In this document: in pieces, positions 7,262-53,610 of the stretch
Layout of the letters: the number at the start of each line of letters is the position of its first letter
Numbering within the stretch: position 1 is the first letter of the stretch
DNA from: a virus
Lineage: Duplodnaviria > Caudoviricetes
Reading direction: 5' to 3' (one strand)
IMG/VR virus record: IMGVR_UViG_3300043432_000237
Coordinates: 1-64,000 of that record
Length of the DNA: 64,000 bases
Made by a program: the position numbers and the translations under genes
The notes under the pieces: generated by a model
Told to the model about the DNA's origin: nothing
The model's database searches: none
Seen by the model: only the letters and a program-made list of their open reading frames with translations

Positions 7262-10189
7262 TTAGTCCGGGATCAGAAGAATGGTCAGGTCGAGGCCAGA
7301 GCTGGTAATCGTACCGCTAACTGGGCTCGTCTTGTAGAGGGCACCATAACCCACGGTGGCGCGGCGCACACGACCCGTCACCGGCTGCGGGTTGGTGTAG
7401 TTGAAGCTCGTTGTCTGCAACACTCCCGAGGCATTGGTCAGCCCGGTGAGGATGTCGGTGCCCGCAGTGAGATCGCCGCCGCTGTCGGCCTCGATGAGCA
7501 CGCGGGCATTCTCGATCACGGCGCTCGTGTTGGCGTCGCGCACGGTCACCTTCACGGTCACCGAGTTGTTGACCGTCGTCGATGCTCCTGCGCCGTTGCG
7601 CACCGTGGGGGTGGAGCCACCGCCCGAAATGTTCAGCGTCACCGCGCCGCCCGAGTCGTTGTATATCGCAGCGCCGTTCGAGGTGTCCGCCCCAAACCCC
7701 GTGAACGTATTGCCCACCAGAGAGTACGTTCCCGGCGTCGTGATGCGGATTGCGTGCCCGCCTCCACCAGTGAAGGCGCAACCGCTGAAGATCGAGGGGT
7801 CTGCCACCGAGCACCAGCGGTTGCCACTGGTGACGCTCGCGACATTGATGCGGCAGTTGTCGACGTTGGTCGAGGCGTTGGTAGTAAGCGAATCGTTGGC
7901 GGCTGGCGGGGTACGGATCGCACAGTCATCCAGGGTAGCGTTGGATATGTCCAACGTGGTGTAGTCGTTGATCGTCAACCCAGAGATCGTGACTGCTCGA
8001 TTGAGCGTGATCGCGCCCGCGCCGATGACCGCGGTGCCGGAAAAGTCATAGCTCGCCGAGGTGTGGGCGCTCGCGTGCAGTCCCCATTTAAAACGGGATT
8101 GAGAAGAGATGACCGAGTTGCGGTGTTTGATGGTGTCGGAGGCCCCTGGGTAGTACAGAATGCCCACCTTGTCGTCGACCGAGTTGTAATTCACCTGCTT
8201 GGCGGTCGCCGAGTACTGGCGCGGGAACTCGACCGCAGTAGCATCCAGATCGAGGTACACCGGGTTGGTGCCTCCGTCGCCAATCTGAACGTCCTGCAGT
8301 AGCAGCATCTGCTTGGTGCCCTGCTGCAGGGCCGAGACGCGCTCCTTGCCGCCAGCGACTGCACGCACAATGCCCGCCACGTCGAGCGGCTCCGTACTGT
8401 TGCCACCCGCCACCACGGTTACGTCCATCAGCCACAGCGATCCAAATCCCATCTGTGCAGTGAGCGTTCCAATCCCGCTGGTCCAGAAGCCCACCGAGGC
8501 AATTACCGCGGTGTCCAGGGTGCCGCTGGTCGCCTTCGTGTTGCCGGCGCCGTTGTTGATCACGATCGGTATGTATGCACCCGATCCCCAGGGCACGTCG
8601 ACACCGTGTACCTGCCAGATCTTGTACCCGGTCGTGGCTCCACCGGATCCCGTATTGGAGCGCACGCCCATCCAACAGCCACGGCCCGAGGCCACGTTAG
8701 GGAAACGCTGCAGGTGCGCAGGCGTGGACGCACGAACGTGACAGAGCAGGTTTTTGGTCCCTAGGTTGAATCGGTTGCCAGCCGCCAAAACCAGCTCGGC
8801 GCCACTGACCTGTCCCGCCGTGCCCAGGTTAGTCATGCCTCCCATGGAGTGGAAGCTGTTGATTCCCACGTCCGTGATCGCCGCTACCGTGGCGTCGTTG
8901 GCCGTGTAGCTCCCGAGCGTCGTGCCATAGTTGGTGTCGGCGGTGGCCGCGAGCGCGGTGTTGCTGTTGTACGCGCTCGTGCCCGCAATAGGGTCCACGT
9001 ACGCGCACGAGTCACTGACGACGTAGCCCGGGATGATCGCGGCGCCGCCCGCGGGAGGGTTGATCTGTCCCACTCCCTTGACCGCTGCTCCCGTGACAGC
9101 CATCGAGCAATACACCGTCGCAGGCGTCGTCCCGGCCGCCTTCTGCCAAGCCCAGCCGAGCGCGTGTGACTCGGCGGCGCCGTCTGAGCCATGTATCTGG
9201 GTGACTGGGCCCTCCACGAAGGACGGCGTACCCGCCGATCCTGAGCCGCTTCCCAGGTAGAGCACCAGGGAGTTGTCGCGGTCAGTGACAATGGTGGGCA
9301 TGTTGGTGCGGGCCGCCGCGCTCTGGTTCGAGAAGTTCAAGCTGAAGCGCTGCGCGTAGAAACAGACGTCGTGACCCGACTGAGCCGACCAGGTGCCAGC
9401 CTGCGTGCTCTTGTTGCCGGCATGACCGGGTGCGCTGGCGTCGTAGCCCACCTGCACGTAGTTCGAGGCGTCGCCGCCGCTATACTCCAGCGCGATGACG
9501 TAGTTGGTGCTGGCCGTGAACTGGTACCAGGTGGCGAACACGAAGTCTTTGAGAGCGAGCGTGCCAGTCAGCGCGCTCACATCCACGTTGTCCGAGGTGG
9601 CCAGCGCCGCCCCGGTGGGAACTGAACTGGTACCGAAGGTGCCTGAGTGAGCGTAAAGCTTAGCCACCACGTTGCCCGTCGGGCTACCAACCTTCTTGAG
9701 GTAAAACTTGGCGCGCGCAAAACAGCCACGGGCGTTGGTGTTGGCCGTCGCCGCGGGCGTAGCAAAGCTCTGCGCTACGCCCGTCGTGGTGCCGTCGCCC
9801 AAGTTCTGGAGGCTGTCCTGGTTGCTCTCGGAGTACGAGGACAAGTCGGTCGTGCCTACCGGGGTGACGGTGTCCACGTCACGGACCGCCACCATCGATC
9901 CATTGTACGACTCGTTGGTGGTGGCGTGCGTCGTGGCCGCGATCGTCAGATCGGTCTCGGAGCCGCCCGAGATCTTCATGTACGCGATCAACGGCGTGGT
10001 GTTGTACCACTCCTGCAGAATCGCCCACCCCGTGGGTGGCGTGGCTGTGAACGTCGTCAGCCCTCCGGTGTCCGCCATGCAGAAGGCGATCAGTAGGTCA
10101 TTGGCCAGATTCGCGCAGACCGGTATGACGAGCCCGGCATCGGTCGTCGTAGTCTCATAGCTGAACGTGTAGTCCCGGACGGCCGGCAT
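7262..10189 (-). CDS. Large Thr/Gly/Ala-rich spike/fibre-like virion protein (beta-sandwich and beta-helix-like segments)
   Basis: 975 aa, low charge, beta-rich, C-terminal VTVKVTVRD...IENARVLI Ig/prealbumin-like segment. Confidence 0.65.
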   Translation of the reverse strand: MPAVRDYTFSYETTTTDAGLVIPVCANLANDLLIAFCMADTGGLTTFTATPPTGWAILQEWYNTTPLIAYMKISGGSETDLTIAATTHATTNESYNGSMVAVRDVDTVTPVGTTDLSSYSESNQDSLQNLGDGTTTGVAQSFATPAATANTNARGCFARAKFYLKKVGSPTGNVVAKLYAHSGTFGTSSVPTGAALATSDNVDVSALTGTLALKDFVFATWYQFTASTNYVIALEYSGGDASNYVQVGYDASAPGHAGNKSTQAGTWSAQSGHDVCFYAQRFSLNFSNQSAAARTNMPTIVTDRDNSLVLYLGSGSGSAGTPSFVEGPVTQIHGSDGAAESHALGWAWQKAAGTTPATVYCSMAVTGAAVKGVGQINPPAGGAAIIPGYVVSDSCAYVDPIAGTSAYNSNTALAATADTNYGTTLGSYTANDATVAAITDVGINSFHSMGGMTNLGTAGQVSGAELVLAAGNRFNLGTKNLLCHVRASTPAHLQRFPNVASGRGCWMGVRSNTGSGGATTGYKIWQVHGVDVPWGSGAYIPIVINNGAGNTKATSGTLDTAVIASVGFWTSGIGTLTAQMGFGSLWLMDVTVVAGGNSTEPLDVAGIVRAVAGGKERVSALQQGTKQMLLLQDVQIGDGGTNPVYLDLDATAVEFPRQYSATAKQVNYNSVDDKVGILYYPGASDTIKHRNSVISSQSRFKWGLHASAHTSASYDFSGTAVIGAGAITLNRAVTISGLTINDYTTLDISNATLDDCAIRTPPAANDSLTTNASTNVDNCRINVASVTSGNRWCSVADPSIFSGCAFTGGGGHAIRITTPGTYSLVGNTFTGFGADTSNGAAIYNDSGGAVTLNISGGGSTPTVRNGAGASTTVNNSVTVKVTVRDANTSAVIENARVLIEADSGGDLTAGTDILTGLTNASGVLQTTSFNYTNPQPVTGRVRRATVGYGALYKTSPVSGTITSSGLDLTILLIPD

Positions 10190-10197
10190 CCGGGCAC

Positions 10198-11898
10198 CTA
10201 GGCGTCACTAGTGCGCACGGCCGTCGCGGAGCCACCGGCAGATCCGAGTGCGCCTGTCGATTGAAAGGTTTTGATTGGTGTCACCCCACCGTCCCGTACG
10301 CGAATGAAGAGCGGACGATCCGAGCCCGAGTAGACGCCGGTGAAGCTCTCGGTCGCTGCCGTGGCCAGCTTGTCGATGTAGGAGCAGTAGGCATTGGCGC
10401 CGTTCGCGGCGCCGTTCGAGCTAAAGTCATGCGCCGTGATCGTGAACGTCTTGGTGCCCGAGTTGTAGGCCGAGTAAGGGTGCCGGGTGTACGCGCCGTT
10501 GGCGCGCTGGATGCGGATCGTGCCCGAGTTCGGGGTGTCCACCGGGATGGCCTCGTTCACGACGACACTGGTCACCGCGCCGCCGCTGAGCGCGCCGTTC
10601 AGGGTGAACTGATTGACCTTGATGCCTCCACCTTCCTCGGGCGCGACCAGCACGTAGTCCTCTCCCGAGACCAACCCGCCGACAGTGAACGTCACGTAGT
10701 TCGGTGCCTGTCGCAGGGTGTTCGTCAGGTCGAACACTTTGTCGTTGGCGGACAGATCGGTGGCCTCGACGCCAAACCCAAAGGCGCCGATGATGGCGCT
10801 GCCAGTACTGACGCCGCAGAACGGAAAGCTCAGGGTGCGCTCCGTCACGGTCACGTTGACCTGGCAGGTCGCACCCGACGTGCCACCCGTGATCACTTGG
10901 TTGTCGGTCGGCGGCACGCCGGTGAGCAACTGGATCCACATCTTGGTCGGGGCATTGACGTCGTTGATCGCCAGCATCTGCCCGGTGCCGCCCGACCACG
11001 ACACCGCCTCGAAAGCGCTGAAGTCCGTGACACTGGGCGTGTCCACTGTGATCTCGTGCGTGATGCCACGAAACAGCTCGCCGTTCAGTCCGTAGAGCGT
11101 CTCGGCAGTGCCGCGCCGAGTGAGGTACTTCATGCGCTCATAGAACTGGTTGATCGTGTACGTGTCCCGATTCCACTCCGAGTAGTAGAACTCGTCGGTG
11201 GTGTCGTTGTTCACGTCGATGCCGTTGTACCCCTCGCTGGTGTTCGTGATCGTGACCCAGCCGGCGACTGTGACTGACGCCGTCGCGTTGTTCAGATCGT
11301 CGGCGTAGGTAAGAGGCACCACGTTCACGCCTCGGCCGGTGCCATTGACCCGGAACTCGGAAAAGGTCTTGCCCCACTCGCGCGTCTGGAAGAGCAGCTT
11401 GCGCCCGTCGATGTCCGCCGCCGCCGTGCGCACCTTCACCATGAAGCGGTGACTAATGCCGTTCGTGGGGTCGGGGTTGATGCCCTTCAGCGCGGAGCCG
11501 TCGGGTATGCTGTTCCAGAAGTCGCTCGCTATGAGCGCTCCGGCCTGGACGATCTCAGCGTGCGCGCCAGCGTTCGCAATGATCTGCACACCGTCATAGA
11601 TGACGTCTCCATTGGTCTGAATGATCGAGCCACCGTAAACGTACTCGGCCGAGGCGTCGTCCAGGTTGTACCCGTTCAACAGCGTGATGATGGTGTCGTA
11701 TGCCTTGTCGCTCGGCGTGTCGCGCGTGATGTCCATGTAGTCATCACCCGATGACGAGGCGTCGTCAGCCAGGTCTTGAAGCCAGCGGTGCAGTTCGAGC
11801 ACGGTCACCCAGTTGGCACCAGCCGCGGTGTGGATCGGGCCGATGTACCGCACGTCCTTGTCGTTCTGAATTTCCCACTTGGTTGCGTCGAGTACCAT
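10198..11898 (-). CDS. Putative virion structural protein (beta-rich, 566 aa)
   Basis: Composition and position next to the 975-aa gene; promoter-like element upstream. Confidence 0.6.
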   Translation of the reverse strand: MVLDATKWEIQNDKDVRYIGPIHTAAGANWVTVLELHRWLQDLADDASSSGDDYMDITRDTPSDKAYDTIITLLNGYNLDDASAEYVYGGSIIQTNGDVIYDGVQIIANAGAHAEIVQAGALIASDFWNSIPDGSALKGINPDPTNGISHRFMVKVRTAAADIDGRKLLFQTREWGKTFSEFRVNGTGRGVNVVPLTYADDLNNATASVTVAGWVTITNTSEGYNGIDVNNDTTDEFYYSEWNRDTYTINQFYERMKYLTRRGTAETLYGLNGELFRGITHEITVDTPSVTDFSAFEAVSWSGGTGQMLAINDVNAPTKMWIQLLTGVPPTDNQVITGGTSGATCQVNVTVTERTLSFPFCGVSTGSAIIGAFGFGVEATDLSANDKVFDLTNTLRQAPNYVTFTVGGLVSGEDYVLVAPEEGGGIKVNQFTLNGALSGGAVTSVVVNEAIPVDTPNSGTIRIQRANGAYTRHPYSAYNSGTKTFTITAHDFSSNGAANGANAYCSYIDKLATAATESFTGVYSGSDRPLFIRVRDGGVTPIKTFQSTGALGSAGGSATAVRTSDA

Positions 11899-32241: not shown

Positions 32242-32715
32242 ATGGAACAGCAACTGCATCTGGATCAACTCGCCGGCTACCTCACGCGCACCGACGCGCT
32301 GCTACAGCTGACGAAGCAGCAAGCGACTTCTCTGTCTCCCGAGACGCAGGCCGCGCTGGCTGCGCTGGAGGCCGAGCGTGCAGCGTGGCCGGAGTGGGAC
32401 ATCGGGTCGATGACGTGCAATACCGGAGCGCAGAAGCAGCTGCCCTGGGCGCTGCCCGCAACGGTGGAGGTTTCGGCTCCCACCGACAAACCCTTCCTGG
32501 TGAGCGAGGTGGACTTCGGTAATGCACCGGTCAACGTGGACGTGCGCGCCCCGGGTCAGCTCAAAGCGTTTGCCACGGGCTCGGGCGTAATCAGTTGCTG
32601 GTGCGTGTTGCCCCCAGGCGAGAAGCTCACGCTGAGGATCACGCCCCAGGTGCCGGGGGCTCAGCTCACGAGTCTGCCCGTCGTGAAAGGCTACCCTCTC
32701 GGCCGCGCCGAGTAG
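32242..32715 (+). CDS. Helix plus small beta-sandwich protein (possible minor capsid/penton single jelly roll)
   Basis: AAGGAG SD; PFLVSEV...VLPPGEKLTLRIT...VVKGY strand pattern. Confidence 0.5.
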   Translation: MEQQLHLDQLAGYLTRTDALLQLTKQQATSLSPETQAALAALEAERAAWPEWDIGSMTCNTGAQKQLPWALPATVEVSAPTDKPFLVSEVDFGNAPVNVDVRAPGQLKAFATGSGVISCWCVLPPGEKLTLRITPQVPGAQLTSLPVVKGYPLGRAE

Positions 32716-32767: not shown

Positions 32768-33382
32768 ATGTCGGCAGTTGGCCTGCGTAGGCTCTCACCC
32801 GTCCTCACGCTCCTGAACACTCCAGGTTTCGATCTGGAGGGCATCAACACTCATGAGCTGCCGGACGGAGCGATTTGCTACTGCGCAGAAACGAAGTGCG
32901 ACTTTCAGCTCGACCTGACGTCCACGGCTGCAGCAGTGGTGGGTGCGGTCGTTGTGCCGCTGTCCGGACCTGGACGCTGGAAGTCTGCAGCGCCTTCGGT
33001 GCAAGGCAGCTCGACCGTGTTCCGGCGCTCGGACTTCACTCCGCTGACGACGCCGAGCAATGTCCAGGCCACGCTGTTCTCCTTTGCCCTGGATGCCTAC
33101 CAGGACGGCACATACGACCTGGGCATCCTGGTGCAGCTGCGCAACGAGGCAACGGGTGACACGGCATCCTACCGGCGCGTGGCAACCTTCAAGGTCGTCG
33201 CAGGCGTGGTGACGCAAGTGTCGACCACCGACGCGACGTACGACAAGGTGGACGCAGCGCTGGCCGCGTGCGTGGTGACCATCGACACGAGCGGCGGCGA
33301 CGCGCGTGTGCAGGTGACCGGCTTGCTCGCGACGCCGCTGACCTGGACAGGTGGGTACGAAAGCGCGCTGACGCTCTACTAG
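32768..33382 (+). CDS. Virion appendage protein with shared N-terminal adaptor domain
   Basis: GLRRLSP..ELPDGAIC.C.ET.CD.QL...GPGRW shared with 51522..52964. Confidence 0.65.
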   Translation: MSAVGLRRLSPVLTLLNTPGFDLEGINTHELPDGAICYCAETKCDFQLDLTSTAAAVVGAVVVPLSGPGRWKSAAPSVQGSSTVFRRSDFTPLTTPSNVQATLFSFALDAYQDGTYDLGILVQLRNEATGDTASYRRVATFKVVAGVVTQVSTTDATYDKVDAALAACVVTIDTSGGDARVQVTGLLATPLTWTGGYESALTLY

Positions 33383-33392
33383 CCAGGTTCAC

Positions 33393-34694
33393 ATGCTGAG
33401 GATGTTCAACAACCTGGGCTGGTCTCCGACAGACGTCGCTGACCTCGTCTTTTGGGGTGACGCCTCCAAGGAGCTGCCCGGAGCAAGCGTGCTCTTCACA
33501 GACCGAAGCGGCAGTGGCAACCATGCTGTGGGTACCGGGACCGTGGGCACAACCGTGCAAAACGGTCTGCGCACGATGCGGTTCAACGGCACCACGGATA
33601 AGTTCGCCACACCCAACGTCGACTGGACCGCGGTCAACGCCTTCACGATCTGCACGGTGTTCAAGTCGAACAGTGTCGCCGTGGACCAAGCCATTTGCAC
33701 GAAGGGCTACAGCGGATACCCGTTTGCGTCAGAGGGGACGATGTTTTACATCGACACCTCTGTGTCTGCCGAGGTGAAGGGGGCGCAGTACAGCGCCGGC
33801 AACAACTTCAACGTCAAGGATCTGGACGCGGACAACGGACAGAGTTTTGCTGTGCGCTCGCAGCGCGTAAATCGAGCGTTGGCCGCAGCGTACCAGCAGA
33901 GCTTCACGCGCGATGGTGGCATCTGTTACGACCCGGTCACCTTTGGTGGCACCGCTGCGGCAGCCGGCCTCGGGAACAGCCCGATCTACATCGGCGTGCA
34001 CGGCAACGGGACCAACATCCCGCTCTCGGGAGACATCGCAGAGATCCTGATCTTCTCGCGTCGTCTGACCGACGACGAGCTGCGTCGGGTCGAAATGTAC
34101 TTGGGCATCAAGTGGGCGTTGCCGTACCGCTCCATCTATCCGCTCGGCAACTCCATCACGTACGGAGACGTGAACGACGGGTGGCGAGGCCCACTGATGG
34201 ACTCGAACCTGATCACGCTGGTCTCGCGAGGAAATCTCCTCGCCCCGGGCGTCTACCATCACGAAGGACACCCGGGTGCGGCGATTGCGTTCATCGACGC
34301 CAACATCACTGGCTACTGGAACTCTGCCCGAGGCAGAGAAATCCTGCTGACCATCGGCACCAATGACGCGCTTACTCCTGGTTTGCGCGCTGGCATGCTG
34401 GCTGCCTACGACACGCTGCTCAACACGATCGACGCGCTCTCGCCTGCGCCGTCGATCGTCTGGTGCGCGACGCTCACGCCCCTGGGTGACGCGCCGAGCG
34501 ACGCTGCGGTCAACACCTTCAATGCGGGTCTGCCAGCGGTGGTCGCCGGACACCCCAAGGCTCGCTACGTGGACGTAGGCTCGTGTCTGACCGTGGCTGA
34601 CCTGGCGGACTTCATCCACCCGACGCCTGCCGGATTCTTGAAGATGGGCCAGCGTTGGGCCAACGTCCTGAACGGCCTGGTCATCCCGCCCTGA
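33393..34694 (+). CDS. LamG/ConA-like lectin domain fused to an SGNH hydrolase
   Basis: WGDAS..DRSGSGNHA...SGDIAEILIFSRRL; GNSIT, IGTND, DFIHP. Confidence 0.8.
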   Translation: MLRMFNNLGWSPTDVADLVFWGDASKELPGASVLFTDRSGSGNHAVGTGTVGTTVQNGLRTMRFNGTTDKFATPNVDWTAVNAFTICTVFKSNSVAVDQAICTKGYSGYPFASEGTMFYIDTSVSAEVKGAQYSAGNNFNVKDLDADNGQSFAVRSQRVNRALAAAYQQSFTRDGGICYDPVTFGGTAAAAGLGNSPIYIGVHGNGTNIPLSGDIAEILIFSRRLTDDELRRVEMYLGIKWALPYRSIYPLGNSITYGDVNDGWRGPLMDSNLITLVSRGNLLAPGVYHHEGHPGAAIAFIDANITGYWNSARGREILLTIGTNDALTPGLRAGMLAAYDTLLNTIDALSPAPSIVWCATLTPLGDAPSDAAVNTFNAGLPAVVAGHPKARYVDVGSCLTVADLADFIHPTPAGFLKMGQRWANVLNGLVIPP

Positions 34695-34753: not shown

Positions 34754-35287
34754 ATGCAAAACCGCCTGGAGCTGTCGCCGCCAACCGTGACGCGCCCCTT
34801 CCGCGGGCCCGAGGACACCGTGCGCGAAATGGTGCGCGCGGTGCTGGGGCCGCGAGGCGAGCGCTCGATGCTGGTGCGCACGATGACCGAGCAGTGCGTG
34901 CACCTGCTGCAGGACAAGGACTACCAGAGCGAGCTAATCGCCATCCGCAACTTCGTCGCCACCAAGGGTCGTTACACCAACGACTCACTGGGCGTCGAGG
35001 TGGTGAAGGATCCGCAGCGCCAGGTGGAAGAGATCCTGGCCCGCGGTGTGACCGTCGGCGACTGCGACGACTGCGCCACGCTGATTGCCACCATGTGCCG
35101 CCAGGTGGGCCGCGAGGCCGAGTTCGTGACGGTGGGCTTCGGCTCCCCGAACACCTACTCGCACGTGTTCACGCGCGTGCGCGAGCCCAAGAGCAAACAG
35201 TGGATCGTGCTGGACACGGTGGCGGGTAGCGACGAAGCCAAGATGCTCCGTCGGGTGACGACCTGGCGAGCATGGAGGATTGACTGA
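34754..35287 (+). CDS. Transglutaminase-like (papain-fold) Cys protease
   Basis: GDCDD, YSHVF, WIVLD: Cys-His-Asp triad. Confidence 0.85.
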   Translation: MQNRLELSPPTVTRPFRGPEDTVREMVRAVLGPRGERSMLVRTMTEQCVHLLQDKDYQSELIAIRNFVATKGRYTNDSLGVEVVKDPQRQVEEILARGVTVGDCDDCATLIATMCRQVGREAEFVTVGFGSPNTYSHVFTRVREPKSKQWIVLDTVAGSDEAKMLRRVTTWRAWRID

Positions 35288-44430: not shown

Positions 44431-44505
44431 CTCTTCAGTAACGGAATCCCAGGTTGGTCCGGAACCACTTGGCCTGCTCCGCGACAGCGGTGAGGTGTGC
44501 CCAAG

Positions 44506-46287
44506 ATGCCCGGAACCATCGGACGAGCGTTCAAGATCAGCAGCAAGCAGGCGAAGAGCTACGGCTACGCCCGCCCCAACCCTGGCGTGACGGCCATCGC
44601 CGCCGTCAACGGCCGCGGGTCCTACACCGCGCGCACGGCCATGACGGGTCGCAGCGCTGCCGGTCGCCTGTCGCACGCGCGCAACGCGACTCGTCGCCAG
44701 CTGAGCGCGGCCGACCGCGCCGCGTTCGCCAAGCGCATGCGCGACGCGCGCCAGCGCAAGATGACCGGCAACATGTCCCGCTCTGCGGCGGGCAAGAAGA
44801 ACATCAAGCGCGCCATCGCCACCCGTAAGGCATGGGGTCGCAGTCTGCAGCGCGGGCACCGGTATCGCGTCGGCGCCGCCGCTTACGGAAAGTCACCCGG
44901 GGCCGCCAAAAAGCTGTCTCCGGGCGTCTACACAGCAAATCGGAGGACAAGAATGCTCAGGAAAAATCGCACCACCGCACGTCGGCGGGGGCGGGTTCTC
45001 CGGAAGAGCCGCAAGGCGCGCCGGATGACCAGCAACCCGAAGGCGCGTCGCACGACTCGCCGCCGCCGGAAGAAGACCACCGCAGCCGCCGCGCCGAAGC
45101 GCCGCCGTCGGGTGAAGCGCCGCCGCAAGGCGACCGCTCGCAAGACGCCGGTGCGCCGTCGCCGCCGCCGCAAGGCCAAGGCCAGCTCGGCAACCCCGAA
45201 GCGTCGCCGTCGGGTGAAGCGCAAGAGCCGCAAGGCGAGCGCTCGCAAGTCGCCGGTGCGTCGTCGTCGTCGCCGCAAGGCCAAGGCCAGCTCGGCCGCG
45301 CCGAAGCGTCGCCGCCGCGTGAAGCGCCGCAAGGGTCGCAAGGCGAAGGCCATGTCGCCCAACCGTCGCCGCCGGGTGAAGCACCGCCGCAACCGTCGCC
45401 GGTCCGGCCGTCGCCTGGGGATGTTCCGCCGCAATCAGGGCTTCATGACCACCCTCAAGGAGGGCGCGAAGGTCGGCCTGATCGTGTTCGCGGGCGTCGC
45501 GGCCCACAAGGCCGCCACCAAGCTCCTGACCGAGCTGGTGCTGGACAAGTTCCTCGGCGCCGCTGCCACCCCGGCCACCCCGCCGGCTCCGGCCGCGGTT
45601 TCGGGACTCGAAGTCCTGCAGCCCTACAAGAAGATCATCGCGGGCATCGCGGTTGCCGGTCTCGGCAGCTTCGCAGCCAACGCCGTGATCAAGGACCAAG
45701 AGACCAAGAAGTACGCCATCGCCGGCATGTGGGGCTCGCTCCTGCACACCGTCATCGTGGACCTCTTGGCCGCCTTCGGTGGAGCCACCGGTGGCAAGGT
45801 TGCGCAGTACCTGTCGGGCTACGACGACAGCACCGCGTACTCCCTCGGCGCTTCGATCATGCCGATGTACCGCCCCGTGGGCGAGTACTTCGATCAGGGC
45901 ATGGGCGAGTACTTCGAGGGCGCCACGGCCGGTCTCGGCAACTACGGCATGAACGGCGACATCTACCAGGCGCAAGCCGGGTACGGCGCCATGCCGGACT
46001 CGAACTCGGGCCACATCGATCCGTCCAGCGACCTCGACCGCGAGCTGACCCTCGCGGAAGCGGCAGCGGGCGTCGGTGCTCTGCCGTCGTACGAAGCAGC
46101 CGCCGGTCTCGGCGACTTCATCGGCAACGGCCACAAGGCGATCGGGTCGCGTTCCACCTGGATCCCGGGTGAGACGAACCCCGGCACCTGGGCACCGGTG
46201 ACCAGCGTCAGCCGCGGCCAGGCCGCGACGGCCATGGTCCCGGCCGGCATCCTGCAGACCGGTGGAGGCTCGGGCGTCTTCGGCTGA
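44506..46287 (+). CDS. Protamine-like Arg/Lys-rich core protein fused to hydrophobic helices and a motif-rich acidic tail
   Basis: GAGGTG SD; about 300-aa basic region with PKRRRRVK repeats; about three hydrophobic helices; tail with repeated GLG/GMG/GVG. Confidence 0.8.
   Translation: MPGTIGRAFKISSKQAKSYGYARPNPGVTAIAAVNGRGSYTARTAMTGRSAAGRLSHARNATRRQLSAADRAAFAKRMRDARQRKMTGNMSRSAAGKKNIKRAIATRKAWGRSLQRGHRYRVGAAAYGKSPGAAKKLSPGVYTANRRTRMLRKNRTTARRRGRVLRKSRKARRMTSNPKARRTTRRRRKKTTAAAAPKRRRRVKRRRKATARKTPVRRRRRRKAKASSATPKRRRRVKRKSRKASARKSPVRRRRRRKAKASSAAPKRRRRVKRRKGRKAKAMSPNRRRRVKHRRNRRRSGRRLGMFRRNQGFMTTLKEGAKVGLIVFAGVAAHKAATKLLTELVLDKFLGAAATPATPPAPAAVSGLEVLQPYKKIIAGIAVAGLGSFAANAVIKDQETKKYAIAGMWGSLLHTVIVDLLAAFGGATGGKVAQYLSGYDDSTAYSLGASIMPMYRPVGEYFDQGMGEYFEGATAGLGNYGMNGDIYQAQAGYGAMPDSNSGHIDPSSDLDRELTLAEAAAGVGALPSYEAAAGLGDFIGNGHKAIGSRSTWIPGETNPGTWAPVTSVSRGQAATAMVPAGILQTGGGSGVFG
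45094..45400 (+). repeat. Tandem 102-105-nt coding repeat (Arg clusters)
   Basis: PKRRRRVK units begin at 45094, 45196 and 45301. Confidence 0.8.
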
Positions 46288-46468: not shown

Positions 46469-47221
46469 ATGGCAAAAGTAGTTTCCATTCGCGAGCGCGT
46501 TCACCAGCCCTTCTACGACACCCTCGTCCGCACGGCGGGTCTCACGGCCGGTGCGCTCACCGACAACACCTCCCTCTTCACCAGCAACGGTGCACGCACC
46601 GAGGCGACGACCAACCTGATCAACGGCGCCACGCTGCCCTCCGATCAGAGCCACGTCGTGCTCGCGCTCCGCGTCTTCACCTGGTACCGCAACCCGCGCC
46701 TGCGCGTGGCCGGTGCCGGTGCCGGCGAGATCGCGCAGAACGGTGACTACAACTTGCTGGCCCCCTGGCTCGCGGGCGGCGCGGCCGTCGGCCAGGCCCC
46801 CGGTCAGGTGCAGGACGTGTACCGCCTGCACTGGCAGACCGAGGAGCAGCTGCACTGGTCGTTCGGGACCGGGCTCAAGAACTCGATCGACAACATGCCG
46901 ACCTGGTACTTCCCGGCGGGCGGCGGCATCTCGGGCGACATGGGTGGGACGACCGACCTCATCCACTGGCAGAACTCGGGCTACGACGGGCACGCCGGCA
47001 TCCTGCGGCTCGCTCGCGCCGTCCTGATTCCGCCTCGCCAGAACATCCTGTGCCAGGCCAAGGTCTTCGCCCTCCCGAACGCGGGTCAGGCGGTCACCTT
47101 CGGCACGACCCAGGGTGCGCGCGACATGCTCAACCTCCGCGACAACCTGAACGCCATCGACGCGATCGGGAAGTGCGTGATGTTCTGCTTCGACGGCCTC
47201 TTCTCGCGCGACGTTCAGTGA
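46469..47221 (+). CDS. Putative major capsid protein (single jelly roll), 250 aa
   Basis: Strong SD, flanking hairpins, strongly biased codons; QPFYDT..SLF..TNL..GATLP..HVVLALRV...LIPPRQNI...VMFCFDG beta pattern; follows the core-protein gene. Confidence 0.6.
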   Translation: MAKVVSIRERVHQPFYDTLVRTAGLTAGALTDNTSLFTSNGARTEATTNLINGATLPSDQSHVVLALRVFTWYRNPRLRVAGAGAGEIAQNGDYNLLAPWLAGGAAVGQAPGQVQDVYRLHWQTEEQLHWSFGTGLKNSIDNMPTWYFPAGGGISGDMGGTTDLIHWQNSGYDGHAGILRLARAVLIPPRQNILCQAKVFALPNAGQAVTFGTTQGARDMLNLRDNLNAIDAIGKCVMFCFDGLFSRDVQ

Positions 47222-47230
47222 TCCCACACG

Positions 47231-47264
47231 CGCCGGTGGGGGTCCTCTCCGGCCCCCTCCGGCG
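47231..47264 (+). terminator. GC-rich hairpin after the capsid gene (weak U-tract)
   Basis: CGCCGG.GGGGG...CCCCC.CCGGCG. Confidence 0.5.
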
Positions 47265-47291
47265 TTCGTCTGCTCCCGAAGAGCGTGGCAC

Positions 47292-47360
47292 GAGCGGCGC
47301 CGCGCTGGCAGCCCAAGCCGCTACGGGATCTGGTTCGCCAGGTCTCGTAGCGGCCCGCTC
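47292..47360 (+). other. Structured intergenic RNA element with UUCG tetraloop
   Basis: GCCGCTACGGGATCTGG-TTCG-CCAGGTCTCGTAGCGGC (47317-47354), enclosed by GAGCGG/CCGCTC. Confidence 0.65.
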
Positions 47361-47414
47361 AGACCCTTTGATCCTCAACTCCCAGCCCTCGCCTGAGCGA
47401 GCACGGGGTTTCCC

Positions 47415-48365
47415 ATGAACGTCAATCAGCAGCTCTTGAACCAGCTCAACGCCGCGGCGCAGAACGCCCGCGTCGCATTCGAGCGCGCCGCCCGCGCCGA
47501 ACAGCAGGGCCAGGCCTTGTACGCCCAGGCATCGCAGCTCGCCGGTGAGCTGGAGGCCATGAAGCGCGTCGTCGCCAACCTCGAAGTCTCGCGCTCCGGC
47601 GCTCCGGCTTCCATCCAGCGGGTGGAGAACATCCCGGGCCGACGCATCCCGTTCGATGCACTGGTCGACATCGCCATCGGTGACTCGGTGCAGTCGGTGC
47701 AGCAGGGCTCGATCACCATCTCGCAGGAAGGCCCGTTCGTGGGCGTCAGCCGCGTGATGGCGCTGCTCAGCACGTTCGAGTTCCAGTACCGCGATCCGGT
47801 CTCGGGCGCCGCCAGCGCCTTCCAGGGTCGCTCCTACGGCCGCTACCGTCCCGCGCACAGCGCCTGGGACCTGAACGACAGCATGGTCTCGCCGCAGGTC
47901 TCGCAGGCCGTGGGCTTCCCCGGCACCGGCGCGCCGCACGTGACCAGCCCCGGCACGGCGTCCAGCTTCCGCTCGATGGAGGGCGACTTCCGCATCATCG
48001 TCGAGAACGCCGGCTCCAGCTTCCCGCGCTCGAACCAGGAGGTCCCCTCGGCGTTCTGGTCGCGCGCCATCAACGAGCCCTTCGAGCTGGGCGCGCTCGA
48101 CGTCTTCGAGCGTGGCGAGGTCATCGTCTTCAAGGTGCTGCCGCTGCACCCGAACAACCCGAGCTACGGCAACCTGAGCGCGTTCGGCGCGCCCAACGCC
48201 AGCTTCCCGTTCGTGACGGCCGGCTTCGATGCCGTCGAGGGCGTCAACGACCAGAACGACGCGAACGCCTCCACGACCGATCCCGTGACGCGCCTGGCGA
48301 ACGCCATCGTCACGATCGGCTACCACGGCTACCGCATCATCCAGCAGCCGGGTCTGCCGGGCTGA
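47415..48365 (+). CDS. Putative second capsid protein (N-terminal coiled coil plus jelly roll)
   Basis: GSITISQEGPFVGV...DVFERGEVIVFKV...VTIGYHGYRI. Confidence 0.55.
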   Translation: MNVNQQLLNQLNAAAQNARVAFERAARAEQQGQALYAQASQLAGELEAMKRVVANLEVSRSGAPASIQRVENIPGRRIPFDALVDIAIGDSVQSVQQGSITISQEGPFVGVSRVMALLSTFEFQYRDPVSGAASAFQGRSYGRYRPAHSAWDLNDSMVSPQVSQAVGFPGTGAPHVTSPGTASSFRSMEGDFRIIVENAGSSFPRSNQEVPSAFWSRAINEPFELGALDVFERGEVIVFKVLPLHPNNPSYGNLSAFGAPNASFPFVTAGFDAVEGVNDQNDANASTTDPVTRLANAIVTIGYHGYRIIQQPGLPG

Positions 48366-48382
48366 GGCGTGCCGACCGAGAG

Positions 48383-48415
48383 GGTCACCGGAGGGATTGC
48401 GAGCCTCCGGTGGCC
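48383..48415 (+). terminator. Hairpin between capsid-like genes
   Basis: GGTCACCGGAGG-N9-CCTCCGGTGGCC followed by ATTTC. Confidence 0.55.
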
Positions 48416-48436
48416 ATTTCGAGGTAGGCTCACACC

Positions 48437-49312
48437 ATGACGGACTACCGCAACCAGCTGTCGTCAGCCTTCCAGCTCCCGAGCATGGGTCATGTGCCGC
48501 GCGACGCCGGAGGCCCGCTCGGTCCCGGTGGTGGAGCGCACCCTGCGCCGAGCGCTCAGGCTGCGCCGCACCCGGAGCCCGCGCCGGACTTCGTGCGCAC
48601 GGTCGCAGCCGGCGGCGCGCTGCCCGAGCTGTTGCTGCACCCGACCTTCCTGCCCTTCGAGAACTTGTTCCGGCGGCTGCCGGAGGAGGCGATGTTCAAC
48701 GCCTCGCCCGACCGCCCCTACAAGTTCGAGCTGGGCGCGTTCGAGGTCCCCAAGAACCAGGCGCTCCTGCTCGCCGACTTTCGGTTCGCGCTGCATCGCT
48801 TGAGCGGCGCCGCCGCCTCCGACACGGTGCCGATGGAGCCCGAGCGGCTGAGCATGCTGCTGGCGTTCGATCTCACGATCGCCAACAACCGCAAGGCGCA
48901 GCTGCGCATGGAGATCGATCCGGTCACCATCCAGGCACAGAAGGAAGCCTTCCAGAGCCAGGTGTCGGGCGGCACGATCTTCCCCGGCGCGCGCACGGGC
49001 GGCTCTGCGCTCAGCCCGGCCAACAACCTGCAGTACGCGCTCTCGCGCTTCGCGCAGTCGGTGGTGCCGGGTGGCCTGGGCCTCTCGGGCTTGCCGAACC
49101 GCCCGCGCCGCCTGGGCGCCGAAGACTTGCCCTTCACGATGGTCGCCGTCGAGACCCAGCGCGTCCAAGCGAGCTGCGTGGTCTTCCGGCCCATCCCCAT
49201 CCCGATCGCGTTCTTCCAGTGCGACATTTCGGGAGTGCTGATGAGCATGAACACGATGCGCGCGCTCTTCGATGCAGTGAAACCTGCCGTCGAGCGTGGA
49301 GGCATCCGATGA
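48437..49312 (+). CDS. Putative third capsid-like jelly-roll protein
   Basis: FELGAFEVPKNQALLL...FTMVAVETQRVQASC...FFQCDISGVL. Confidence 0.55.
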   Translation: MTDYRNQLSSAFQLPSMGHVPRDAGGPLGPGGGAHPAPSAQAAPHPEPAPDFVRTVAAGGALPELLLHPTFLPFENLFRRLPEEAMFNASPDRPYKFELGAFEVPKNQALLLADFRFALHRLSGAAASDTVPMEPERLSMLLAFDLTIANNRKAQLRMEIDPVTIQAQKEAFQSQVSGGTIFPGARTGGSALSPANNLQYALSRFAQSVVPGGLGLSGLPNRPRRLGAEDLPFTMVAVETQRVQASCVVFRPIPIPIAFFQCDISGVLMSMNTMRALFDAVKPAVERGGIR

Positions 49313-49430: not shown

Positions 49431-50180
49431 ATGGCCCTGGGAGCATATTTCCGAGCAGTCGAGAGTCAGCCGATCCCGGAGCCGCAGCTGGACGGGCTGG
49501 GCTCGCAGGATCAGTTCGCGGTCGAGGCGTTGCAGGAGCTGCTGGAGGCACAGGGTATCCGGCCTGCGGCGGCGATGGCGCCCTGGGGCATCCAGGAGGG
49601 CAGCGTCGACTGGCAAGCCGAGCACCCGGACCACAGCCTGCTGCTGTATCCGATCAGCGATGGCCTGCTGACGCAGGTCGAGAAGTCGACCTTCGGCATG
49701 CCCGTGCCGGCCGTCGCGATCTTGACCACCACGCCCGTCGTGCTGGCCAAGGCGCGCGAGGCCTACGACGATACGCCGTACCGCTTTCACGCCGTCGAGG
49801 GCGTCTACCGCCTGGACGACAAGAAGCCGGTGCCGACGATCTACTTCCTCTACTGGGGTCACTACCGCGAGCCCAACGACAGCGGAGGTGGCCGCTCGGC
49901 GCTGCAGAGCGTCGCGTCCATGCTCGGCGGCTCGCTCGTCTTCCCGTTGCAGCTGCCGCGCACCGGCCAGGAGCGCCAGCACCCGTCGGTGACCTTCCAG
50001 CTCGCCCTGGCGGCGCAGCTGAGCGGCCAGCCGGCGGCAGCGCTGCCGCCGACGGCGGTGCCCAGCGCGCTGGCACCCAGTGCCGCCCCGGCGCCTAGCG
50101 CGGCCTGGTGGCTGCTCCCGGTGGTCGGCGGGCTGGCCGCCTATGGCGGCTACCGCTGGTGGAAAGGACGCAAGAGCTGA
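49431..50180 (+). CDS. Tail-anchored membrane protein
   Basis: MALGAY, LDGLGS; TM followed by RWWKGRKS. Confidence 0.7.
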   Translation: MALGAYFRAVESQPIPEPQLDGLGSQDQFAVEALQELLEAQGIRPAAAMAPWGIQEGSVDWQAEHPDHSLLLYPISDGLLTQVEKSTFGMPVPAVAILTTTPVVLAKAREAYDDTPYRFHAVEGVYRLDDKKPVPTIYFLYWGHYREPNDSGGGRSALQSVASMLGGSLVFPLQLPRTGQERQHPSVTFQLALAAQLSGQPAAALPPTAVPSALAPSAAPAPSAAWWLLPVVGGLAAYGGYRWWKGRKS

Positions 50181-51521: not shown

Positions 51522-52964
51522 ATGCAAGACGCTGGAATCGGGCTCCGCCGACTCTCCCCTCGCGACACCCTGGCCGGCGATCCGGGCGGGAGCATAACCG
51601 GCGTCAGCACCTACGAGCTGCCCGACGGAGCGATCTGTTGGTGTGTCGAAACGCAGTGCGACTACCAGTTGCACAAGAGTTCCACGACAGCGGCTGACGG
51701 AGTCTACGTCGTGGCGCCGGCCGCTGGCCCTGGTCGCTGGTTTCAACTGGCAGTGGGGAACAACGTGCTGGTGCAGCCGAGCTGGTACGTCAACGCGGTC
51801 ACTGGTTCAGACGCCAACGACGGCACGACGGCGCTGACCCCGCTGCTCACGTTGGCGGAGCTGTACCGTCGAACGGTGGGCAAAGTGTTCGCCGTGAACG
51901 CTACGGTGTACCTGAGTGGTGACTTCAGCGCAGAGGCACTGGTGCTGGACGCCTGCGTCGCGCCGGGGGTGCAGGTCACGGTGCGCGGTGAAGTCCGACA
52001 GGACGGCAGTTACTCTGTCGGGGCGTATACCGCGTACAACGGTGCAACGAGCACTCCGGCGGTAGTGAGCGACGGCGGAGCGACCGCATACGCTGGCGAC
52101 GTGGGCAAGATCGCGCGGATGACTTCGGGAGCGGCAATCAACTGCTCTGCTCCGATCATGAAGGCGACGGCCGCTGGAGCGTTCCGACCTGGACACTTCC
52201 AGTCGGTGGACTACGTGACGATGGCTCCGGGCGTCGGCGACACCTACGTGGTCGAGGAACTGCTCACCAAGGTAGGGACCATCCAAACGCGCATGAGCGG
52301 CAGCGGTGGAGACTACTCGGTCTATGCCCCGCGCCTGCTCGTGCGGGACCTGGATGTGTACCCGCCGGCAAACACGCCTCAAGACCTGTCGTTCAACGCA
52401 GGCGACGCGAGCGGAGCGGGCACCTTGCTCTACCGCGTGCGTCTGTCCGGTGGCGCCCTGGGCAATGTGTGGCTGACCGGTAGCGGGGTCCAGCTGCTCT
52501 GCACGTACTCCAAAGCCGATTGCTATCTCACCGTCGCCGGTTCAGCGCTCTACTGCTGGGGCTTCGTGGCGATGGGCGGGCTGCAGGTCAACAACAGCAT
52601 CTTGAATGTCCCCTTTGACATGATGCTGGTACAGGGTCACGCGGTTTACTTCTACGGAGGCCAAGTCGCCGCAGTCGCAGGCATCGGGTTCCTGGACATC
52701 GGAGCCGGCGACGGTGCCGGGCTGATCGTCAGCACCGGAGCCAACGTCGAGGCATCCGCCGGGACGTCGTACCTCTGGAGCAACGGAAACCTGTGCGCGT
52801 ACGGTATCCGAGTAGGAGCAGGATCGATGGTCACCTACGGAGTGAAGCCGACGGCCACCGGCGTCACGAACGACACGCTAGTCGGCGGGACCGCCAAGGC
52901 CTATGCCGCGATCCCCTACTTCGAGGCCGCCAACGGCGCGGGCATCGTGGTCTACCAGGGATAG
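51522..52964 (+). CDS. Spike/receptor-binding protein: shared adaptor plus beta-helix-like domain
   Basis: Adaptor shared with 32768..33382; WYVNAVTGSDANDG...PLLTL motif typical of the start of pectin-lyase-like folds. Confidence 0.7.
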   Translation: MQDAGIGLRRLSPRDTLAGDPGGSITGVSTYELPDGAICWCVETQCDYQLHKSSTTAADGVYVVAPAAGPGRWFQLAVGNNVLVQPSWYVNAVTGSDANDGTTALTPLLTLAELYRRTVGKVFAVNATVYLSGDFSAEALVLDACVAPGVQVTVRGEVRQDGSYSVGAYTAYNGATSTPAVVSDGGATAYAGDVGKIARMTSGAAINCSAPIMKATAAGAFRPGHFQSVDYVTMAPGVGDTYVVEELLTKVGTIQTRMSGSGGDYSVYAPRLLVRDLDVYPPANTPQDLSFNAGDASGAGTLLYRVRLSGGALGNVWLTGSGVQLLCTYSKADCYLTVAGSALYCWGFVAMGGLQVNNSILNVPFDMMLVQGHAVYFYGGQVAAVAGIGFLDIGAGDGAGLIVSTGANVEASAGTSYLWSNGNLCAYGIRVGAGSMVTYGVKPTATGVTNDTLVGGTAKAYAAIPYFEAANGAGIVVYQG

Positions 52965-53019: not shown

Positions 53020-53610
53020 ATGGCCAATGAGCTGTTCGAGGCGCTGAGCAAGGTTGCGTTCTCCCTGCAGGGCTTGCCGCGCGGCTCACTGGGTGGCCCG
53101 GTCTGGGAAGAGCTGAAGCCCTGGCTGGAGAAGTTGATGTCACACGCGGCGCCCAAGTGGTTGCCGCGCCTGAGCTTCGCGTTCCCCTGCCAGGTGGCTG
53201 TGCATCGACAGGGCGTGCCCATTGGGCCCTGTCCGCACCGGGCCATCGCGAGCTGCGACGTCTGCGGTGGCGCCTGCTGCCTGCACCACGCGCGCATCGA
53301 CCAGCTGGGCGACGCCATCTGCTACCCGTGCGTGGCGCGCGCTGTGGCGGCACACCGTGGCGGCGGCGCACCTCCGGCGCCCCCTCCGCGCAGCAAGGCA
53401 GAAGAGCTGCGCTGGGCCCGCAAGCTGCTCAAGGTCAAGCCGGAGGACGACTGGGAGACCATCCGCGCGGCGCACCGGCGCGAGAGCGGAAAAACCCACC
53501 CGGACCGGCAGCGCACCGACAAGGCCAAGGCCAAGGCCACCGAGCGCTTCAAGCTGGTGCAGCAGGCGTTCGAGGTGCTCAAGCTCGAACACGGCCCCAA
53601 GACGGGCTGA
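53020..53610 (+). CDS. B-box-like Zn finger plus C-terminal J-domain
   Basis: CDVCGGACCLHH..CYPC; ARKLL.V..IRAAHR..THPDR..FKLVQQAFEVL. Confidence 0.85.
   Translation: MANELFEALSKVAFSLQGLPRGSLGGPVWEELKPWLEKLMSHAAPKWLPRLSFAFPCQVAVHRQGVPIGPCPHRAIASCDVCGGACCLHHARIDQLGDAICYPCVARAVAAHRGGGAPPAPPPRSKAEELRWARKLLKVKPEDDWETIRAAHRRESGKTHPDRQRTDKAKAKATERFKLVQQAFEVLKLEHGPKTG

Follow-up and report, generated by a model that had tools for sequence, protein, structure and literature searches.

Three adjacent genes at positions 46469-49312 were analyzed in the first 64 kb (the window) of virus record IMGVR_UViG_3300043432_000237, which stems from an uncultured virus in a freshwater sample. The record comprises 125,036 bp, and because its two ends repeat over 127 bp the genome is regarded as complete and circularly assembled. 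The products of the three genes are referred to as p250, p316 and p291. Our best explanation, to which we assign a probability of about 60%, is that these genes are the shell module of large (~95-140 kb) tailless bacterial viruses which form one family, have an internal membrane and follow the plan of Sulfolobus polyhedral virus 1 (SPV1), a member of the Portogloboviridae. Predicted folds, structural neighbours, conservation, synteny and the non-detection of tailed-phage and ATPase genes were computed directly; from them we infer the role in the shell, the assignment of the subunits and the route of assembly.

Predicted folds of p250 and p316

Structures were predicted with AlphaFold2 from family alignments of 62 diverse sequences for p250 and 120 sequences for p316, and all structural statements on these two proteins rest on predicted monomers. 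The p250 model (predicted local distance difference test, pLDDT, 82; predicted template modelling score, pTM, 0.79) consists of eight core strands and one helix. In the p316 model (pLDDT 78), an N-terminal helix of 60 residues precedes a beta domain with eight strands. In Foldseek searches the SPV1 chain 6oj0_A was the first match of p250 (probability 0.98). SPV1 was also the top structural match of the p316 beta domain, and it ranked above every helvetiavirus chain for both proteins. Later ranks were rich in vertical jelly-roll capsid proteins, including those of P23-77 (VP17), HHIV-2, SH1, HCIV-1, STIV (A223), PRD1 (P3) and PBCV-1 as well as D13, and both lists consisted almost wholly of viral jelly-roll capsid proteins. 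Structure prediction and Foldseek comparison, as proposed in the initial annotation, thus bear out its assignment of a jelly-roll fold for two of the proteins: p250 and p316 are predicted single jelly rolls, nearest to the vertical single-jelly-roll capsid proteins of membrane-containing viruses. In contrast to the double jelly rolls of the Bamfordvirae (PRD1 P3, PM2, STIV, FLiP), each chain contains one eight-stranded barrel and not two.

For p291 the ESM Atlas model is poor (pLDDT 0.53), and its nearest named clusters, the PRD1 P2/P3 families at 0.77, are too weak to use. A complex prediction for p250 with residues 68-316 of p316, run without controls, gave an ipSAE of 0.00, which is no evidence either way.

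Conservation and gene order

The three genes are closely spaced and show a high third-position G+C content, as do real genes of this genome. Translation of p250 is predicted to start at the ATG at 46469, which is preceded by an AGGAG Shine-Dalgarno sequence, and the homologues begin with the same MAK residues. This strong translation signal has no equivalent before p316. Among clusters formed at 90% identity, p250 has 686 relatives, the best 120 of which are all 71-98% identical and lie on contigs of up to 138 kb; the lineage comprises hundreds of such protein clusters. Further, diverse relatives came from an exhaustive HMMER search among representatives at 50% identity; some are only 190-210 amino acids long and lack residues ~77-117. 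Cluster look-up placed one of these short forms on a 138,583-bp contig, while two single-protein scans of the genomic context of the short (~190-210 aa) forms yielded no confirmed relative. For p316, 604 relatives of 53-87% identity were retrieved, with 40 invariant columns; residues 1-60 are variable and residues 68-316 very conserved. A word-indexed search returned only 10 close relatives of p291. In this protein a variable, proline-rich segment (residues 1-52) precedes a conserved core (residues 53-285).

Gene order was read from IMG/VR and GTDB loci. Nine relatives, with lengths of 63-140 kb and identities down to 34%, keep the order p250-p316-p291. The p250 homologue on a 106-kb contig binned with Planctomycetota is 34% identical, and there the three genes are adjacent and in the same order (hmmsearch E values 4.7e-73, 7.7e-24 and 5e-8). 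In each of the seven IMG/VR relatives that were examined, and in one contig of a metagenome-assembled genome (MAG) binned with Pseudomonadota, the gene after the p316 homologue encodes a p291 homologue of 30-46% identity. The gene for p249, a conserved membrane protein, closes the block, and its homologue follows that of p291 in seven of the nine relatives examined.

Two divergent genomes, G3 (130 kb, 96% complete) and G5 (111 kb, with a terminal repeat), were compared over their whole length. The best-conserved genes with respect to both are p250 (53-55% identity) and a transglutaminase-core protein (55-56%), followed by p316, a 298-aa protein, p291 and small membrane proteins.

GC-rich hairpins were observed after the stop codons of p250 (47231-47264, stem of ~13 bp) and p316 (48387-48413, stem of ~9 bp), both without a U tract. 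The hairpin after p250 has a folding energy of -41 kcal/mol but a z-score of only -1.6 against shuffled sequences, and we do not claim it as a terminator.

Comparison with SPV1 and the Helvetiavirae

SPV1 builds a T=43 shell from hexamers of the single-jelly-roll (SJR) protein VP4 and pentons of VP10, with subcapsomer proteins, membrane proteins and an inner membrane; its core is a VP1-DNA nucleoprotein, it has no packaging ATPase and its genome measures ~20 kb, while the genomes of prokaryotic double-jelly-roll (DJR) viruses are below ~20 kb (PMC8459092, PMC8812541). A single-jelly-roll candidate for the major capsid protein that structurally resembles VP4 is found here in predicted p250. As in SPV1 (PDB 6oj0), the top structural match of p250 and of the p316 beta domain, the jelly rolls are separate proteins and not fused into a double jelly roll. 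At the level of gene content, further likenesses would be a basic candidate for DNA condensation, the lack of a recognisable packaging ATPase and, with many membrane proteins encoded, a putative inner membrane. As far as sequence analysis can show, the module mirrors SPV1 in its highly conserved jelly roll, second jelly roll, membrane proteins and DNA-condensing candidate and in the absence of a motor, and p250 is therefore read as the major capsid protein.

The differences are considerable. SPV1 has a hyperthermophilic archaeal host, a 20-kb genome and an 87-nm particle of T=43, whereas the present contigs measure 95-140 kb and fall into bacterial MAG bins; neither an archaeal host nor a genome of ~20 kb applies here. 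Instead of the small VP1 there is a 596-aa membrane-anchored protamine-like protein, p291 is additional, and p316 carries a 60-residue N-terminal helix. No sequence homology to SPV1 was detected among PDB chains at E values up to 10. Genome size also separates these viruses from the prokaryotic DJR viruses, which stay below ~20 kb (PMC8812541).

The initial annotation had compared the module with the Halopanivirales, in which a conserved ATPase-MCP-MCP block of two major capsid proteins (MCPs) is defined by an FtsK/HerA packaging ATPase. VP17, HHIV-2, SH1 and HCIV-1 are among the neighbours of p250 and p316, but the defining FtsK/HerA ATPase was not found. In a shell of the type found in the Helvetiavirae (Halopanivirales), for which P23-77 VP16/VP17, SH1, HHIV-2 and HCIV-1 were compared (PDB 3zn6, 3zmn, 6qt9, 6h82, 6h9c), p250 and p316 would be the small and large major capsid proteins, derived from one duplicated SJR gene, which form homo- and heterodimers and pseudo-hexameric hetero-capsomers, with p291 as the penton. 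In favour of this reading, two adjacent genes encode predicted single jelly rolls, and chains of P23-77 VP17, HHIV-2, HCIV-1 and SH1 are among the best neighbours of both p250 and p316. The conservation gradient from p250 over p316 to p291 fits two major proteins and a penton, and the very strong conservation of the p316 beta domain points the same way. However, the FtsK/HerA ATPase is absent from the genome and from the genes in common with its relatives as far as detected, BLASTP and hhalign revealed no trace of a duplication, and SPV1 outranks every helvetiavirus chain for both proteins. There is also no sequence similarity to VP16/VP17 or VP4/VP7, and the genome is 4-7 times larger than those of helvetiaviruses. 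We consider a shell of the helvetiavirus type unlikely. The module as we read it works like an SPV1 or helvetiavirus shell but fits neither family, with no sequence homology and a genome six times larger than that of SPV1. By description only, the virus would resemble SSIP-1, a tailless virus of bacteria that contains a membrane and has two types of major capsid protein and an orphan genome; the genome of SSIP-1 is much smaller.

Packaging genes and the nature of the virion

The hallmarks of the Caudoviricetes, i.e. HK97 capsid protein, portal and large terminase, were not found in sequence-based searches, in which the portal was not represented by a family model of its own. Six-frame searches with Terminase_6N (PF03237), HK97 Phage_capsid (PF05065) and FtsK_SpoIIIE (PF01580) gave no match. 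No terminase, portal, head or tail PHROG was matched by 27 open reading frames (ORFs) scanned singly, and none was among the matches listed (25 of 34 families) for 115 further ORFs. Classical Walker A motifs are confined to DnaB, a DnaC-like protein and an AAA+ protein without conservation in relatives. The strongest argument comes from genome comparison: the genome, G3 and G5 contain no large conserved ORF that would fit a terminase or portal and no conserved ATPase besides DnaB. Large conserved ORFs in common with G3 or G5 at this divergence encode only DnaB, glycosyltransferases and a coiled-coil protein, and those common to G3 and G5 a giant protein containing a recombinase, TnpB and an amidase.

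These results bear on the possibility of a tailed or otherwise conventional phage in which an extremely divergent, possibly HK97-like protein forms the shell, while the jelly rolls have an accessory function in the virion or in host interaction (as cement, decoration, spike heads or lectins). In such a phage, terminase and portal would be expected among the best-conserved genes, but none was seen at a divergence at which p250 retains 53-55% identity, nor did any six-frame profile match. Moreover, receptor-binding and decoration proteins usually show far lower conservation than p250, and the module is embedded among genes for membrane proteins. We regard an accessory role as improbable.

Several observations nevertheless weigh against a tailless virus with an SPV1-like shell. 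The absence of terminase, portal and HK97 capsid protein means that sequence profiles and the comparison of core genes, as opposed to structural searches, did not detect them. The automatic taxon labels of related clusters read Uroviricota. A 421-aa protein at genome positions 112995-114260 (L003:8995-10260, minus strand) matches phrog_1645, 'virion structural protein', with an E value of 4.5e-95. It shares 35-39% identity with proteins of T4-like cyanophages and of Puniceispirillum phage HMO-2011 and provides the sole strong link to tailed phages in culture. The module proteins have no sequence similarity to any known capsid protein, and Foldseek returned no match at an E value of 1e-3 or better (PDB for both models, BFVD for p250). 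Finally, we know of no SJR or DJR prokaryotic virus that approaches this genome size.

A third possibility is that there is no icosahedral capsid at all, and that the jelly rolls are matrix or surface proteins on the membrane of a pleomorphic, vesicle-like virus or of a non-viral mobile element. Such an element would account for the very many small membrane proteins and for the missing packaging motor, and the ParB, integrase and replication genes represent a plasmid-like side of the genome. At least 15 ORFs in the region from 36 to 54 kb encode strongly hydrophobic, mostly C-terminal segments. However, p250, p316 and p291 have none of these and are devoid of membrane anchors and signal-like segments, and the closest structural matches come from the shells of icosahedral viruses. 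The genome also harbors lysis genes (transglycosylase and endolysin families), and a terminal repeat like that of 127 bp is typical of assembled complete virus genomes. The existence of a capsid-free element is thus very improbable.

Proposed assembly and its implications

For the preferred SPV1-like shell, the following scheme is proposed. p250 would be the major capsid protein, a vertical single jelly roll that builds six-fold capsomers, with its variable D-E insertion facing outward. p316 would be a second jelly roll in the shell, in which the conserved beta domain may provide lattice contacts and the variable 60-residue helix may point inward to the membrane. A five-fold (penton) or minor lattice position of p316 is favoured over that of an equimolar second major protein. 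We lean to the penton scheme over hetero-capsomers because SPV1 outranks the helvetiavirus chains and because no strong translation signal precedes p316, although this evidence is thin. p291 would be a third, faster-evolving virion protein, probably located at the vertices. The DNA would not be pumped by a motor; it may instead be condensed by the protamine-like, membrane-anchored protein encoded upstream, and membrane and shell would assemble around it. By simple volume scaling from SPV1 or from PRD1 (~15 kb, 66 nm, T=25), a particle of ~130-160 nm with T of ~100-150 would be expected.

Taken further, and only tentatively, the viruses may represent a widespread bacterial sister lineage of portogloboviruses and helvetiaviruses, in which a very large SJR shell covers a membrane and more than 100 kb of DNA, condensed on a protamine-like protein anchored in the membrane, is enclosed without a motor. 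Genomes above 100 kb are generally associated with tailed phages, which use a motor of terminase and portal. If the proposal is correct, this link would be broken by a common environmental lineage, which would be by far the tailless phage lineage with the largest genomes known. It would also provide the first large bacterial members of the single-jelly-roll lineage, with bearing on the debated origins of Helvetiavirae and Bamfordvirae. Prokaryotic viruses with SJR capsids would then extend to genomes several-fold larger, calling for a new taxon of high rank, and a system would be available to study how jelly-roll lattices scale up and how large genomes are enclosed without ATP-driven packaging. 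In practice, p250 would serve as a marker gene for viruses that present pipelines label as tailed phages by default. Full-text literature searches, which were of incomplete coverage and do not prove novelty, revealed no account of a bacterial virus with an SJR shell and a genome larger than 100 kb.

Sequence relations among the module proteins

According to the initial annotation, the three module proteins and a fourth, distant one (p157) are paralogues that share a late strand pattern followed by a terminal strand ending in glycine. All three ORFs and every quoted peptide were located as described: LIPPRQNILCQ at residue 186 of p250, VFERGEVIVFK at 230 of p316, VAVETQRVQAS at 236 of p291 and VLPPGEKLTLR at 122 of p157, with the second motif FDG at 241, YHG at 303, ISG at 264 and VKG at 148, respectively. 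In the models, the pattern corresponds to equivalent jelly-roll elements of p250 (strand G 180-187, turn PPRQ, strand H 192-199, strand I 234-248) and p316 (strand G 229-231, turn ERGE, strand H 236-243, strand I 291-309). It comprises the end of strand G, a four-residue turn and strand H, and the second motif lies within strand I. Judged as a sequence similarity, the pattern does not exceed what chance would produce, and the glycine falls inside the last strand of both models and not at its end.

Paralogy itself found no sequence evidence in either BLASTP or profile-profile comparison. In a permissive all-against-all BLASTP of p250, p316, p291 and p157 every pair had an E value above 0.4, and hhalign among the p250, p316 and p291 family profiles (17 sequences for p291) gave probabilities of 0.4%, 1.0% and 0.5%. 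The common fold of p250 and p316 would agree with an ancient duplication without demonstrating one. Inclusion of p157 as a distant fourth member could not be upheld: it has no similarity to the other three, and five records of related viruses, including two with a completeness of at least 96%, contain no homologue. Its ESM Atlas model is poor, and the neighbours of this model, small carbohydrate-binding sandwiches resembling carbohydrate-binding modules (CBM), mostly with template modelling (TM) scores below 0.5, are too weak to use. p157 is not part of the conserved set.

Searches against known proteins were likewise without result. Pfam and PHROG scans of p250, p316, p291, p157 and their neighbours gave nothing significant for these proteins, with the domain matches of individual neighbours given below, and tblastn of p316 against 50,697 phage records gave no match. 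Comparison of p250, p316, p291 and the family profiles with all PDB chains (phmmer and hmmsearch, E values up to 10) returned nothing relevant. A likeness of the p291 stretch FELGAFEVPKNQALLL to VP16 of P23-77, suggested in the initial annotation, was not found by sequence: whole p291, its profile and the 34-aa stretch were compared with all PDB chains at E values up to 10, and VP16 was absent, one unrelated amidase being the only match.

Neighbouring genes

The module and its characterized neighbours are listed in Table 1.

Table 1. Positions and features of the module genes and of selected neighbours in the window.
Gene or product	Position	Strand	Features
p157	32242..32715	+	157 aa; lies shortly before the genes for the spike-like 204-aa protein and the GDSL/ConA-lectin protein
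Transglutaminase-core (Cys-His-Asp) protein	34754..35287	+	PF01841, E 3.2e-8, above cut-off; 55-56% identity to G3 and G5; as conserved as p250
Protamine-like protein	44497..46287	+	596 aa; Arg/Lys-rich, hydrophobic segment; immediately upstream of p250; candidate DNA-condensing core protein
p250	46469..47221	+	250 aa; candidate major capsid protein; predicted single jelly roll with variable D-E loop insertion (~residues 77-117)
p316	47415..48365	+	316 aa; putative second jelly-roll shell protein; variable N-terminal helix (3-61), highly conserved beta domain (68-316)
p291	48437..49312	+	291 aa; third conserved, faster-evolving soluble protein; candidate vertex/penton component
p249	49431..50180	+	conserved tail-anchored membrane protein with C-terminal hydrophobic segment; closes the four-gene block

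A homologue of the protamine-like protein was detected in G5, and homology between the G3 and G5 versions was detected as well. By analogy with VP1 of SPV1 (PMC8459092), this protein is predicted to condense DNA. The transglutaminase-core protein is a candidate for a maturation protease or cross-linker of the virion module.

The 204-aa protein (32768-33382) and a 480-aa protein (51522-52964) have a common N-terminal domain of 70 residues (57% identity, E 4e-25), after which they diverge. This domain is a real paralogous adaptor, through which two distinct spikes or fibres are probably anchored to the virion. The 204-aa gene is followed by that of the GDSL-lipase/ConA-lectin protein (33393-34694). 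A core gene of the virion module at 53020-53610 encodes a cysteine-rich segment followed by a C-terminal DnaJ (J) domain (PF00226, E 4.2e-10), and its product may recruit host Hsp70 for assembly.

Relatives and further genome content

Relatives were found on contigs from freshwater, sediment, groundwater and soil, which were binned with bacterial MAGs of Pseudomonadota, Planctomycetota and Gemmatimonadales. The hosts thus appear to be bacterial. Besides the genes discussed above, the genome codes for SNF2, DnaN, DnaB, a DnaC-like protein, ParB, a papain-like protease, an integrase and glycosyltransferases.

G3 and G5 each encode a protein of ~1360 amino acids with a tyrosine-recombinase domain near residues 440-550 (L022:8135-12214 and L015:5560-9669, both on the minus strand). 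These proteins are 32% identical to each other and have no counterpart in the studied genome by BLASTP; TnpB-like transposases are also common to G3 and G5. Two ORFs of the window at 7262-10189 and 10198-11898 (minus strand) encode 975 and 566 amino acids with an unusually low first-position G+C content. They show no family match and no homologue in G3 or G5 and are variable cargo. A beta-rich protein of 310 amino acids is encoded at genome positions 121345-122277 (L003:17345-18277, minus strand) and is 41% and 27% identical to proteins of G3 and G5, respectively. It gave no family match and nothing in hhalign comparisons with the p250 and p316 profiles; it could be a further virion protein of the beta-sandwich type.

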